Source: an uncultured delta proteobacterium (lineage in GTDB: Bacteria > Desulfobacterota > Binatia > UBA9968). Taken from it: a stretch of DNA of 64,000 nucleotides. The DNA is taken from contig CAVWLW010000074.1 of NCBI GenBank assembly GCA_963755715.1, positions 32,001 through 96,000 on the forward strand. The letters run 5' to 3'. The position numbers were made by a program, and so were the translations under genes. Shown here one piece after another: positions 11,966 through 16,223 of this stretch (its first letter is position 1; each line of letters starts with the position of its first letter). The notes under the pieces were generated by a model that had not been told where the DNA came from, made no database searches, and saw nothing but the letters and a program-made list of their open reading frames with translations.

Positions 11966-12020
11966 GGCGTGTACAGGGTCCGTCGCTTGAATGCGTAGCG
12001 ATGCTTATGTGAAAAAAAAT

Positions 12021-12070
12021 TGGTGGTGGTGGTAGGAGTCGAACCTACGACACCGCGGATATGAGCCGCG
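12021..12070 (-). repeat. Duplicated 3' part of tRNA-Met (att-like direct repeat)
   Basis: 48/50 identical to 16147-16196; covers anticodon arm, T arm and CCA but lacks the D arm and 5' end. Confidence 0.92.
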
Positions 12071-12086
12071 CTGAAATAATTAATCA

Positions 12087-12520
12087 CGGGTTGACCCGCG
12101 ACCCCGGAACATTTTTCTCGAACGGGTCCTGGACCTTTTCCGGAGGAATCTCCACGTCGCGCGTCGATCTCATCGCCATAGTAAAGCGTCGGCGTGCCGC
12201 GCAGGGTGAGCAGCAGCATCGCCGCCAAACGCGCCTGCGCCGGACCGACCCGGGATGCGATGCGCGGCCGGTCGTGGTTTCCGAGAACCCAGTTTGGCCA
12301 TCCACGCTCCGGCAGTGCCGCTTCGTATTCCCCGATGATTCAAGCGATATCACGCGCCTGCCAATTCGCGAGGAGAAGCTGAAAGTTGAAAGGGACATCG
12401 ACGCCGCCAAGATCGACGCCATAGTATTGTACGAGCCGCTCGATGGGCAGATAGATTTCACCGATCAGCACCCGATCTTTGTACTGATCGACTAGGCGCC
12501 GGACCGCAACCAGCGACACA
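12087..12520 (-). pseudogene. GH13 alpha-glucosidase/alpha-amylase internal fragment
   Basis: Translates as DRVLIGEIYLP...PFNFQLL...DIA*IIGEYEAALP..GWPNWVLGNHDRPRIASR...LLLTLRGTPTLYYGDEI, then a frameshift to DVEIPPEKVQDPFEKNVPG. In-frame stop; both ends missing. Confidence 0.85.
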
Positions 12521-12720
12521 ATATGCTTTCTTTCACTCGTTCGCTATCCTCGTCCAGTCCTTCTCTTTTCACCAGCAAGAAAACGGCAGCGAGACTCCTT
12601 GCAACGAAGAAAACCTTGCTTCGCTTGTAGCTTCCCTTCGTCGATCAGCGCGCGAAAAAACCTTTACCGCGAAAGAGATATTGATCAATGCGCCATTCTG
12701 AAAAGCGATCTTTGCCGGTA

Positions 12721-12857
12721 GGCGCTAATTTTGCACTAAATCATTGACCATCCTGCCGCGTCGCGAACGTGTTGATGGAAATGGCGTATCTCATTGGGCC
12801 GTGTACGTCATTTCCGACATTAACCAGTCTGGGTGAAAAAATTCGACTGGATTATCA
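12721..12857 (+). promoter_or_regulatory. Repeated non-coding element, copy 1: sigma54-type -24/-12 motif plus conserved hairpin-forming sequence
   Basis: GGCGCTAATTTTGCA (GG-N10-GC). Shares the identical 23-mer ATTGGGCCGTGTACGTCATTTCC and TCGACTGGATTATCA with 14920-15057. Confidence 0.6.
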
Positions 12858-12968
12858 TACGTATTGATCGCGATGATCACGCTAAATCGTTAGGGGTGAT
12901 CCGGCAGTTTTATTGATGTGCAGCGAATGCCTACGATAGCAATTGAAGCTGTCGAGAAAGTCCATTGA

Positions 12969-13850
12969 ATGATTGTCTTACATAATTTAACAACGAAAAA
13001 GCGGGCGCAGACTACTCACTCGAAGAGAGCCGTAACTCACTATGCCCCAGGGTGTCTTCGCAGGTTGATCCGCCGGCTGATAAATTGCCATCTACGAGCT
13101 TTAGCGCTTTTCTATAAAAAACGACCTGTTCCTCTGAGCTACTGGTTGTCTTTTCACTCGGCCGTCGCAGCTCTGTCTCATTCTTCTGATCCTCTGTTGC
13201 CTAGTCAAAATTGCCTTCAGAGTAGTGGCGCATCTTTGCCAATACGAGAGTTAAAAGAAGTGTTGCGTCACGATTTATTAGGAATGTGGGCTCTGGATGC
13301 CGATACTATCACTTTATTGTGGAAACGAATTCGGCAGGATCGACCGAAGGTCATTATCGAATGTGGGGCCGGAGTGAGTACTCTAGCTTTAGCAAAAAGT
13401 ATAGCGGACTATGAATCGGGATCAGAGACTTTTGCGTCGTTGCTTTCATTCGAACAGGATCTTTGGGTGAAGGAAGGGGTTGAGAAAAGACTTGAGATAT
13501 GTGGGCTGAAATCCGTGACGATATTGCATGCGCCTATTTCGAAAGAAGGAGAGTACCAGTTCGATGAGAATCAGTTGAGAGAACATCTAGGGTCCGAAAA
13601 AGTTGATTGGGTAATCGTTGATGGACCGGCCGGTCCGGAGGGCTGCCGCGTATCAACGCTCCCTTTTCTGGCGCGTTTTTGCCGTCCAGGAGCACGCTGG
13701 TTTTTAGACGATTCCTTTCGCGATGGGGAACTAAGGGTGTTGAATCAGTGGAACCGTATGCACGGAATTGTGGTTGAAGGGATCTATCCTATTGGCAAAG
13801 GATTAGGTGTCGGAATCGTGGCGGATCCGCAGCAGGTTGCTCGGTCATGA
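12969..13850 (+). CDS. Class I SAM-dependent methyltransferase (island cargo)
   Basis: WALDADT, IIECGAGVST (motif I), LSFEQD, VIVDGPAG, FLDD. AT-rich; true start uncertain. Confidence 0.75.
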   Translation: MIVLHNLTTKKRAQTTHSKRAVTHYAPGCLRRLIRRLINCHLRALALFYKKRPVPLSYWLSFHSAVAALSHSSDPLLPSQNCLQSSGASLPIRELKEVLRHDLLGMWALDADTITLLWKRIRQDRPKVIIECGAGVSTLALAKSIADYESGSETFASLLSFEQDLWVKEGVEKRLEICGLKSVTILHAPISKEGEYQFDENQLREHLGSEKVDWVIVDGPAGPEGCRVSTLPFLARFCRPGARWFLDDSFRDGELRVLNQWNRMHGIVVEGIYPIGKGLGVGIVADPQQVARS

Positions 13851-13929
13851 AAGTCCCTATTCTCAACCCAAGCGCGTACGCCAAATTTTGGCTCAGACCT
13901 GCTGCAACTGTACCGAGACCGAATATCTG

Positions 13930-14143
13930 CAACGTGAGCGGTTGATCTTATATTTGAGCCAAGCCCTCGCTCCGCCGGCCGAACTCGTAGTAGAGGATCC
14001 TTTGCGTTGGCGATAATGCCCTCAAACTCCAGCGTCTTGGCTACGCGGATCAACTCCGCTGGCTTGGCCTCGAACGCCACGGATGGAAGCACTGGGTAAT
14101 GGAACTTGGCCAGCGGCTTTTCGAGCAGTTCGCACCGCTCCCT
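13930..14143 (-). pseudogene. ATP-dependent DNA ligase (LigD/LigC-type) fragment
   Basis: ERCELLEK...EFEGIIA(K) (motif IV) and, after frameshifts, WLKYKINRS (motif V). Confidence 0.7.
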
Positions 14144-14147
14144 CTAG

Positions 14148-14633
14148 ATCCGACGCGGCTTGATCGCTCGGTGCTTAACCAAATGACCGACCAACTGCTT
14201 GTTCAGATCCGCAACCCGCTTTTCGCCAAATCTCTGGTTGAACTTGATCAACGTGGTGGCATCGGGAACCGTATCCATCAACGACAGACGGCAGAAATAT
14301 CTCCATGGCAGTCTTCCCGAACTTCCGTCTCAACTTCTTCGTAGCTCAGTCCCAGCGAAACTTCAGATACATCATGCGCAGATAGATCCCTACGGCTGTG
14401 CCGGGTCGGCCCATGCTCTTATCGAAAACTTCTTCGAAGGGTTTGACCAGTGCGGGGCTCGACAGAAGCTCGTCGACTTTCTTGAGCTCGTTGTCCGACT
14501 CGTACAACGACCGATCGATGAAGCCATCGCCAAAACTCATCTGCTGAGATATTGCTCTGCGCATAATTTCTTTTTCTACATCAAAACTACAATGACACAA
14601 GAAAATTCTGACTTTTTCAGTGAGAACTAACTA
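14148..14633 (-). mobile_element. Truncated IS (IS5/ISNCY-like transposase N-terminus, frameshifted) with one putative end
   Basis: From ATG 14564: QQMSFGD...MGRPGT...LRMMYLKFRW / LSYEEVETEV / WRYFCRLSLMDTVPDATTLIKFNQRFG. Ends before the DDE domain; candidate end TAGTTAGTTCTCACTGAAAAAGTC. Confidence 0.75.
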
Positions 14634-14919
14634 ACACCGAAACCTCGACTAAAAGACCCTCGAAGGGTCGAGCATCTCTCGCCGATTGGTATTTATTGCA
14701 ACCGACGGTCGGAGAGAGCGCCGGATCTCGGCGCGGTGAGAGAAGGTGAAAACAATTTAGTCACTATTGAGGAGTTCGGCACAGCGCGATATCTGCCACC
14801 ATCCTATGGTGTCACGCGTGTTGTCGATGCGTTTTGACCGTCGCATCAGAAGCCGCCGAAAAGCGAATCTCGCAAATAATCGGAATCGTAGCGGCGGTAC
14901 GCGGCAATTCATGCCACTC

Positions 14920-15057
14920 GGCGCTAATTTTGCACACAATTAATCGGTAATCGTCCTGCCTCGTGGAAAGTGATGGGGAAAACGCGGGTCTAATTGGGCC
15001 GTGTACGTCATTTCCAACATTGACCGATCTGGGTGGAAAAAATCGACTGGATTATCA
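14920..15057 (+). promoter_or_regulatory. Repeated non-coding element, copy 2: sigma54-type -24/-12 motif plus conserved hairpin-forming sequence
   Basis: Identical GGCGCTAATTTTGCAC start; same conserved blocks in the same order and near-identical total length as copy 1. Confidence 0.6.
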
Positions 15058-15211
15058 CGTGGCACACATAGCTACAGAGTGCGAAGCGGAAGCAAAACAA
15101 TGATAATCGTGCGAACCGCACAGTTGATTGAGGGACTGAGCGCCAAGCTTCGACTGCGCGGGTCGCGGTAAAAGATCGCCAGCGATTGCCTTGCGCAGGA
15201 GAGGTGATGAA

Positions 15212-15463
15212 ATGTCAATAAAAACGACTCTCACTAACCTTCCTACGATTGCACTTCAAATCATCGGCGGAATCTTGATTCTCACATCGATGGTGGGCTT
15301 CAGAAGTGGTGGCATGCTTTGGCCGATGCTCGGCTCCGGGACTGGAACAGGGTTGCTTATCTTAGGGTGGGAACGGACGAAAGAAAAGCACGCGGCGCTA
15401 CAAGATGATCAGGAAAAACCCGAAGCAGTGCCAACCACACGACCTGTCCGTGCGGCGAGGTGA
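15212..15463 (+). CDS. Small hypothetical membrane protein (2 TM segments)
   Basis: GAGGTG RBS before ATG 15212; two hydrophobic stretches and a charged tail. Confidence 0.55.
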   Translation: MSIKTTLTNLPTIALQIIGGILILTSMVGFRSGGMLWPMLGSGTGTGLLILGWERTKEKHAALQDDQEKPEAVPTTRPVRAAR

Positions 15464-15938
15464 TCGCCCTGGGCGAATCCTGACCTGCCTGTGGCTCGGT
15501 CACGACACATATATGCCTCAAGTGTGGCGCGGAAGTGCGGCTGGATCGGTTCTTGAAAGACTTCACTTCCGGCCAGAATTGAGCTAGGCAGGCATTCGCA
15601 TCGTCTTTCTCATCATGTATTCTTCGACAGGTGTGACCCTTTAGCATATTTTCTTTTCAAGGTCCTTTTTTGTATCCCGACAAATTGAGGCATTGGAATT
15701 GTGCGCCTTTGGCCTAACCGTTGCTCGCCAATAGTTTCGCCAGCCAGTTAGTTCTTCTTGAACCCACATCGAGCATTGTCTAACAAATGACAGTACGAGG
15801 GCAACGCACCGGCAGCAGGTATTATGCTTGTCTTGAAAATGGTGAACAGACATTTGGCCAAGTTGACGCGGGAATATACCGCAACACAAAAGGGTGATCT
15901 CCGTGCGCTGGCAATCGCAGAGGAACTTTCACAGGTAG

Positions 15939-16044
15939 GTGATGAGACACACGAGCTTGCAACCACGACGAAGTACATGCGGACTGTTGAAGAGCGGATA
16001 AGGCACGCTGTTGAAAATCTTGGGGGCGATTCTGGGGGCGATTC
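15939..16044 (+). pseudogene. Tyrosine integrase C-terminal remnant
   Basis: VMRHTSL and ATTTKYMRTVEERIRHAVENL join across a 1-nt frameshift to give the H-x8-Y catalytic box; it points toward the tRNA 3' end. Confidence 0.6.
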
Positions 16045-16146
16045 AATGGCCGCAAATGGCCGCGAAACGTCGGATTTGGCCAACTTGCAAAATTTGAATG
16101 CGTTGGCGAAAGCACTGACAAACCACGGTTATTTCAAAGGGAATGT

Positions 16147-16223
16147 TGGTGGCGGTGGTAGGAGTCGAACCTACGACGCCGCGGATATGAGCCGCGTGCT
16201 CTGACCAACTGAGCTACACCGCC
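16147..16223 (-). tRNA. tRNA-Met (CAT), elongator-like
   Basis: GGCGGTGTAGCTCAGTTGGTCAGAGCACGCGGCTCATATCCGCGGCGTCGTAGGTTCGACTCCTACCACCGCCACCA; 77 nt, G1-C72 paired, CCA encoded. tRNA-Ile2 is not fully excluded. Confidence 0.93.

Follow-up and report, generated by a model that had tools for sequence, protein, structure and literature searches.

The stretch of DNA analysed here, 64,000 nt from an uncultured delta proteobacterium (the window), carries two diverged copies of a short element. The original prediction placed them at 12721-12857 and 14920-15057 and read them as a noncoding element, a sigma-54-type promoter followed by a conserved structured leader or small RNA (sRNA), which was suggested to be a portable regulatory cassette or an undescribed noncoding RNA. 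Both copies lie within a segment, 12071-16146, that is bounded by a 51-nt copy of the 3' end of a tRNA-Met gene and by the intact tRNA-Met gene, and that also holds decayed gene fragments and two intact open reading frames (ORFs). A third copy stands in front of a protein-coding gene, p178, on contig C7 of the same genome (G000), and the features of the island are described below with reference to it.

12020..12070, minus strand: 3' half of tRNA-Met, displaced, at the left end of the island; left member of direct-repeat family D2 (51 nt, 96% identical to 16146-16196)
12084..12519, minus strand: fragments of a decayed alpha-amylase-family (GH13) gene, matched by tblastn to the intact C73 gene (Pfam Alpha-amylase, E=3e-69); the fragments themselves are without a Pfam match
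12713..12745, plus strand: putative sigma-54-type promoter of copy 1 (GG at 12721-12722, GC at 12733-12734; start predicted at ~12746 from the usual -24/-12 spacing)
12746..12872, plus strand: part of copy 1 that is homologous to the p178 5' leader, about 81% identical to C7:5534-5729
12873..12907, plus strand: what copy 1 keeps of the ~12 opening codons of p178, from the alignment, the BLAST limits and tblastn (HAKSLGVIRQ against HAKSLRVIGQ)
12969..13850, plus strand: intact 293-amino-acid ORF, cargo of the island, weakly methyltransferase-like (Pfam Methyltransf_24 at E=2.6e-4, which does not reach the curated cut-off)
13784..14600, minus strand: transposase gene of DDE/ISNCY type, in fragments (NCBIfam ISNCY at E=3e-5, well short of the cut-off; tblastn to the intact C59 transposase, Pfam DDE_Tnp_1/DUF772)
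14906..14944, plus strand: copy 2, upstream stretch in common with C7 and putative sigma-54-type promoter (GG at 14920-14921, GC at 14932-14933; start predicted at ~14945)
14945..15057, plus strand: part of copy 2 that is homologous to the p178 5' leader, ending at ...GGATTATCA, 16 nt before the position of the ATG in C7
15212..15463, plus strand: intact small ORF, 83 amino acids from ATG, cargo of the island; hydrophobic and, from a reading of its sequence, probably a membrane protein
16147..16223, minus strand: intact tRNA-Met (CAT), right edge of the island, a tRNA match; the empty site, lplA-tRNA-Met-phosphoesterase, occurs in related genomes

Of 11 related loci, 3 have lplA, tRNA-Met and the phosphoesterase gene side by side, at spacings of about 70 nt. 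The 4.1-kb stretch is therefore an insertion, within which no integrase was recognised.

The repeat is present as described, and all of the shared motifs that had been quoted were found in both copies, including the exact 23-mer and the GG-N10-GC. Its true limits are wider than was proposed, 12713-12907 for copy 1 and ~14906-15057 for copy 2. Two direct-repeat families cover it, D1 (12777-12857 and 14977-15057; 81 nt, 86% identical) and D4 (12713-12741 and 14912-14940; 29 nt, 83% identical), and the match between the two copies in a whole-genome BLASTN search (E=2.5e-27) places their similarity far above chance. Searching the genome and its relatives with BLASTN confirmed both copies and added the third, at C7:5528-5729 (78-82% identical to both window copies), which the whole-genome BLASTN places at C7:5528-5697 (81-82% identical). 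Copy 1 aligns with C7:5534-5729. All three copies agree in 104 of 147 columns of a three-way alignment, and the pairs are 78.2, 78.8 and 81.6% identical. By BLASTN and nhmmer the genome contains three copies of the element, and an nhmmer profile of the element found nothing besides these below E=0.39 in the same genome.

The C7 copy ends in ...GGATTATCA, and 16 nt further on stands the ATG of p178, an intact ORF of 178 amino acids (C7:5694-6230) whose product begins MNHAKSLRVIGQ... The homology of copy 1 to C7 does not stop at the leader. It passes the ATG (12873-12875), continues for ~12 codons (~35 nt of coding sequence) and ends at 12907. This remnant has lost 1 nt after the ATG and is out of frame, with a stop after 6 codons. 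Copy 2 matches the 5' region of p178 from ~14906 to 15057 and breaks off 16 nt before the ATG. The limits of copy 1, copy 2 and the C7 copy are therefore nested around the 5' end of one gene. With a 211-nt query, the element extended by 50 nt, a BLASTN search of the genome itself and 60 relatives gave matches in four other genomes, all of the same genus. These matches were limited to positions 174-209 of the query (~35 nt), which are the coding start of p178, and in those four genomes the matched stretch opens an ORF reading M-A/T-H-A-K-S-L-R-V-I-G-Q. The N-terminus M-x-H-A-K-S-L-R-V-I-G-Q is conserved in p178 and 28 homologues, and all 28 of the homologues fetched from related genomes start at, or no more than 2 residues from, the K-S-L-R-V-I-G-Q motif. 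These conserved starts fix the start codon of p178, which makes the element upstream of it a 5' leader.

We consider it likely that the element is the promoter region and ~130-nt 5' leader of p178, and that the copies in the window arose from it long ago by partial segmental duplication and lie in the tRNA-Met island. What is directly observed is the homology, where the copies begin and end, the remnant of the gene and the island, together with rpoN and the activator genes described below. In the history that we propose, the 5' region of p178 would have been copied twice in part, ending up in the decayed DNA inserted at the tRNA-Met 3' end and diverging by about 20% since. Copy 1 would have taken along the ~12 codons that are now out of frame, and copy 2 would have lost everything from 16 nt before the ATG. 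Segmental duplicates of gene 5' ends and pseudogene relics are known to occur in tRNA-linked genomic islands. The window copies resemble such relics in their nested limits, their divergence of about 20% and the frameshifted gene start, as well as in their setting, among amylase and transposase fragments in DNA inserted at the 3' end of a tRNA gene and flanked by a 51-nt direct repeat. They are unlike relics in one respect, which is that both are correctly oriented 110-155 nt before intact cargo ORFs; their orientation and distance make promoter capture possible. The repeat that was first noticed is thus a real observation, and it is probably explained by partial duplication of the 5' region of a gene rather than by a new RNA family or a mobile cassette.

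Orthologues of p178 offer a view of the age of the leader. Several of them are over-called at the N-terminus, so that the leader appears in translation. P0002, P0004 and P0008 read it in one frame; in P0003 the extension changes frame part-way through; and in P0010 (81% protein identity), called in a further frame, the 23-mer core is still recognisable as LGRVLHF, along with ...KIRLDYHT. In P0027 (60% identity) similarity is confined to the last ~30 nt of the leader. Reading of the leader in differing frames suggests that it is noncoding DNA older than the species, a suggestion drawn from short peptide matches, not DNA.

Beyond these orthologues, the element reaches no further than a single lineage. 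An exact degenerate 25-mer scan of species-representative genomes gave no match. The same scan of metagenomes gave 16 loci (5 copy-1-type, 2 copy-2-type and 9 C7-type), each of which, across all that aligned, is 96-99% identical to one of the three loci already described, so these are strains of one species-level lineage and not new family members. No fourth locus type occurs among the 16. The nhmmer profile found nothing below E=0.55 in 32 related loci around p178 homologues, and a p178-based scan of genome contigs for related loci gave 140 pattern matches, none of which was confirmed. Together with the sequences of the genome itself, the metagenomic loci form the 19-sequence set used below (6 copy-1-type, 3 copy-2-type and 10 C7-type).

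The proposal of an independent noncoding RNA or portable cassette is not sustained by these results, as the element is the 5' region of one protein gene, copy 1 keeps part of the coding start, and no homologue was found beyond orthologues of the same three loci. Another part of the original prediction would make the leader a structured cis-regulatory RNA (a riboswitch, thermometer or protein-binding leader) acting on p178 and, through the copies, on the island ORFs. Copy 1 lends this some weight. Its folding z-score is -2.98, only 1 of 200 shuffles folding as well, and the stems quoted for it in the original prediction do appear in its minimum-free-energy fold. A GGAAA...UUUCC hairpin can be drawn in all three copies, copies 1 and 3 can form a small hairpin of UCAU with an AUGA that includes the AUG, and the core is apparently kept in the orthologue of 81% protein identity. 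The other copies do not bear this out, with z-scores of -1.00 for copy 2 and +0.08 for the C7 copy, so that the copy in front of the intact gene folds no better than its shuffles. With 13 distinct sequences, RNAalifold drew two hairpins with a covariation term of -0.31, and compensatory (both-side) change was found in 1 of 24 predicted pairs; the sequences amount in effect to three independent lineages, which gives the structure tests little power in either direction. The register of the first hairpin differs from copy to copy. The block-wise conservation that had been taken as a sign of selection cannot be told from random scatter of the differences between copies, whether by the longest identical run (14; p=0.25), the number of runs (p=0.16) or the window variance (p=0.43). 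At gathering score, two tRNAs were all that Rfam 15 recognised across the window, and at E<=10 nothing in 12500-15300 matched, which leaves the element without an Rfam family. A conserved structured RNA is thus unsupported, and a regulatory structure in the leader seems to us quite unlikely.

A family of trans-acting sRNAs would also account for several diverged copies, each after a sigma-54-type core, with an identical 23-mer common to the copies as a possible seed and unrelated ORFs downstream. The comparison would be with the Qrr1-5 quorum-regulatory sRNAs of Vibrio, which are reported to be LuxO- and sigma-54-dependent (10.1101/2021.07.01.450815). The likeness lies in several paralogous copies behind sigma-54 promoters with a highly conserved core. 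The element differs from them in having no Rfam match and no terminator, there being no plus-strand terminator-like site in 12713-12968 or 14906-15211. The conserved sequence of the C7 copy, the best of the three, is moreover continuous with a protein gene, a piece of which copy 1 holds, and only three loci of one species-level lineage are involved. We regard sRNAs of this kind as very unlikely. Transposase fragments close to the copies could instead point to a miniature inverted-repeat transposable element (MITE) or the end of an insertion sequence. Promoter-bearing miniature repeats are known from Neisseria, in the Correia elements. Like these, the element is a short repeat that could give differing downstream genes a promoter, and it lacks terminal inverted repeats and a target-site duplication: the longest exact inverted match between its ends is 6 nt, its flanks are unrelated, it occurs in three copies only, and it has an evident origin in the upstream region of a gene. 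The MITE was rejected on the absence of terminal repeats and target duplication and on the three copies. A short coding sequence, either a micro-ORF or an N-terminal extension of p178, would explain why gene callers run through the leader in several orthologues and why a frame, VYVISNINQS..., is common to the copies. That frame has a stop in copy 1 and in the C7 copy of this genome, P0003 and P0010 use other frames, and the 28 homologues from related genomes and the other paralogues of this genome begin at the M-x-H-A-K-S-L-R start or have no upstream similarity. The coding alternative was rejected on these stops and differing frames, and we find mobile and coding origins alike scarcely credible.

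The promoter part of the original prediction stands as plausible, and so does the leader, once structure and independence are taken away from it. The core, AGGCGCTAA(T/A)TTTGCA, agrees with the sigma-54 consensus, TGGCAC-N5-TTGCW (GG at -24 and GC at -12), at 9 of its 11 specified positions. About 745 sites of the GG-N10-GC type are expected by chance in 7.4 Mb by our arithmetic, so the match by itself proves nothing. The GG and GC and the N10 spacing are intact in all 19 sequences, and the core 16-mer is unchanged in 10 of 10 C7-type and 3 of 3 copy-2-type sequences, with one substitution in 3 of 6 copy-1-type sequences. The 12 nt directly after the core diverge strongly between copies, as they would be expected to from -11 to +1. 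One rpoN gene (a single Sigma54_DBD match, 213 bits) is encoded in the genome, the lack of which was to have refuted the original prediction. There are also 36 Sigma54_activat matches, 31 of them with E<=1e-59, corresponding to ~31 strong activator genes. Upstream regions of the 28 p178 homologues contain 10 forward sigma-54-like sites, 50-221 nt before the start. Shuffled upstream regions contain a mean of 1.6, and 10 was reached in none of 500 shuffles. No sigma-70-like site was found on the plus strand in 12500-15500. A promoter of the extracytoplasmic function (ECF) or sigma-70 type within the leader was dropped for want of a sigma-70-like site and because the -35-like GGAAA there lacks the AAC that is typical of ECF promoters. 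The element is like known sigma-54 promoters in its exact GG-N10-GC, in the company of rpoN and many activator ATPases, and in a long leader, which is common in the class. It is unlike them in that no upstream activator site turned up and dependence is a prediction. On balance we lean towards sigma-54 dependence. Sigma-54 RNA polymerase would bind the GG/GC core and an activator ATPase would open the promoter, with transcription predicted to start ~12 nt downstream of the GC.

A number of observations weigh against the account of the element as a sigma-54 promoter and leader that arose with p178 and was duplicated from there. That the leader predates the duplication, which bears on the direction of copying, is supported by the short peptide matches and not by DNA, and no trace of the element was found upstream of p178 homologues that are 56% identical or less in related genomes. 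Within the species the leader is not better conserved than flanking noncoding DNA. Strain differences amount to 2.90% in copy 1 and 1.55% in the upstream spacer, and to 3.41% in the C7 leader and 1.99-2.37% in its flanks, many of the C7 differences being the same reference-specific sites recounted across several loci. Copy 2 is the exception, with 0.66% as against 1.64-1.95% in its flanks, a contrast that comes from only 2 differences (2 in 304 bases, compared with 16 in 918 bases of the two flanking spacers). As to the promoter, the reverse strands of the 28 upstream regions give 5 sigma-54-like sites, so the enrichment may be partly compositional, and 2 of the 10 forward sites come from an unpublished genome, G005. 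No activator-binding site, which in this class would lie about 80-150 nt upstream, turned up, no dedicated motif search having been made. The copies have no common sequence beyond ~20 nt upstream of the GG, and copy 1 differs from the others upstream of about -33, so that any upstream site was not duplicated with it. Finally, the contigs from two soil metatranscriptome runs cover neither element, which makes them uninformative on its expression, and no transcript start was seen.

The two cargo ORFs begin 112 nt (ATG at 12969) and 134-155 nt (TTG at 15191 or ATG at 15212) downstream of the copies, within the 110-155 nt originally given. A search of 30 other genomes of the genus found neither ORF. 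The methyltransferase-like ORF has 21 synonymous and 11 nonsynonymous strain differences, from overlapping loci whose counts are not independent, and no indels; the synonymous excess and lack of indels indicate that it is probably a live gene needing a promoter. The small ORF shows 1 difference in 370 bases compared between strains. The metatranscriptome contigs fall only on 13301-13597, 13828-14082, 14594-14633 and 15374-15500; they touch the methyltransferase-like ORF, the beginning of the stretch with transposase fragments and the last part of the small ORF, and may reflect DNA carry-over. At one metagenomic locus (L015:1-585), unrelated GC-rich DNA lies beyond the position equivalent to 12963 and replaces the methyltransferase-like ORF, through either structural variation or chimeric assembly.

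Whether the window copies still fire and serve the intact island ORFs as promoters is, in our estimation, about evenly balanced. Promoter capture in the fuller sense, in which they drive the methyltransferase-like and small membrane ORFs and these are coregulated with p178 as a three-gene mini-regulon, shares its origin with the duplication of the p178 5' region that we favor and differs from it only in present-day function. It would fit with two ORFs that are both intact, the methyltransferase-like one with its excess of synonymous changes, and with the GG and GC intact in every copy. Between either element and its ORF there is no plus-strand sigma-70-like or terminator-like site. The low divergence of copy 2 and the metatranscriptome contigs on 13301-13597 and 15374-15500 would also agree with it, the first being a contrast based on 2 substitutions and the second subject to carry-over. 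Set against this, copy 1 is more variable than its flanks and its 16-mer carries the substitution in half of the copy-1-type sequences, copy 1 is not firmly tied to its ORF, as the DNA of L015 differs after 12963, and the search that was not dedicated to activator sites turned up none common to the copies. We hold coregulation of the three genes only tentatively, as somewhat less probable than its opposite. A more specific version appears unlikely. In it, a lineage-specific sigma-54 promoter-leader module, copied to the island, would have been taken over for the expression of two horizontally acquired genes, with all three genes under a single activator and perhaps a single leader-binding factor. 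If true, it would show how an acquired island can be connected in nature to a host regulon, through promoter-leader duplication. Short of that, the duplicated upstream region of a gene had passed for a new family of noncoding RNA, and the result is mainly a correction. A duplicated promoter-leader is ordinary and of low general interest, and the locus offers a small test case of whether such duplicates are reused for expression of island cargo or not.

The p178 protein itself belongs to an unstudied family with about 10 paralogues per genome, often behind sigma-54-like sites. It matches no Pfam or NCBIfam family, has no usable match in a protein atlas, and in a PDB sequence search retrieved nothing below E=0.23. 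The protein has two similar halves, each helix-plus-sheet, and its AlphaFold2 model has a pLDDT (predicted local distance difference test score) of 75.7. A Foldseek comparison of the model with the PDB gave nothing at E<=0.001, and the best VIA-align score (Z of 6.0 at a root-mean-square deviation of 6.6-11.6) is within background. By tblastn this genome has about 9 further distant paralogues, and the element is absent upstream of these 9. A large protein database yielded 189 homologues, all unnamed or "hypothetical," whose sources are metagenomes of soil and other kinds. Within the taxonomic family, 19 of 90 genomes (G000 included) have a match to p178 at E<=1e-25, the best being 56% identical. 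The gene at C7:5694-6230 corresponds to L006:1661-2197. In one metagenomic strain (L012:1-1182) p178 is broken after about codon 82 by a DDE transposase gene (Pfam DDE_Tnp_1_4). Comparison of C7 with L009-L024 gave 2-5 nonsynonymous and 0-1 synonymous differences per locus, small numbers from nonindependent loci that hint at relaxed or diversifying selection. Within the island, the ORF-bearing stretch next to the tRNA (15641-16204) has a relative at the protein level elsewhere on its own contig (C74:3008-3439; 55-60% over 60-66 amino acids), which lies beside a DAHP synthase gene.

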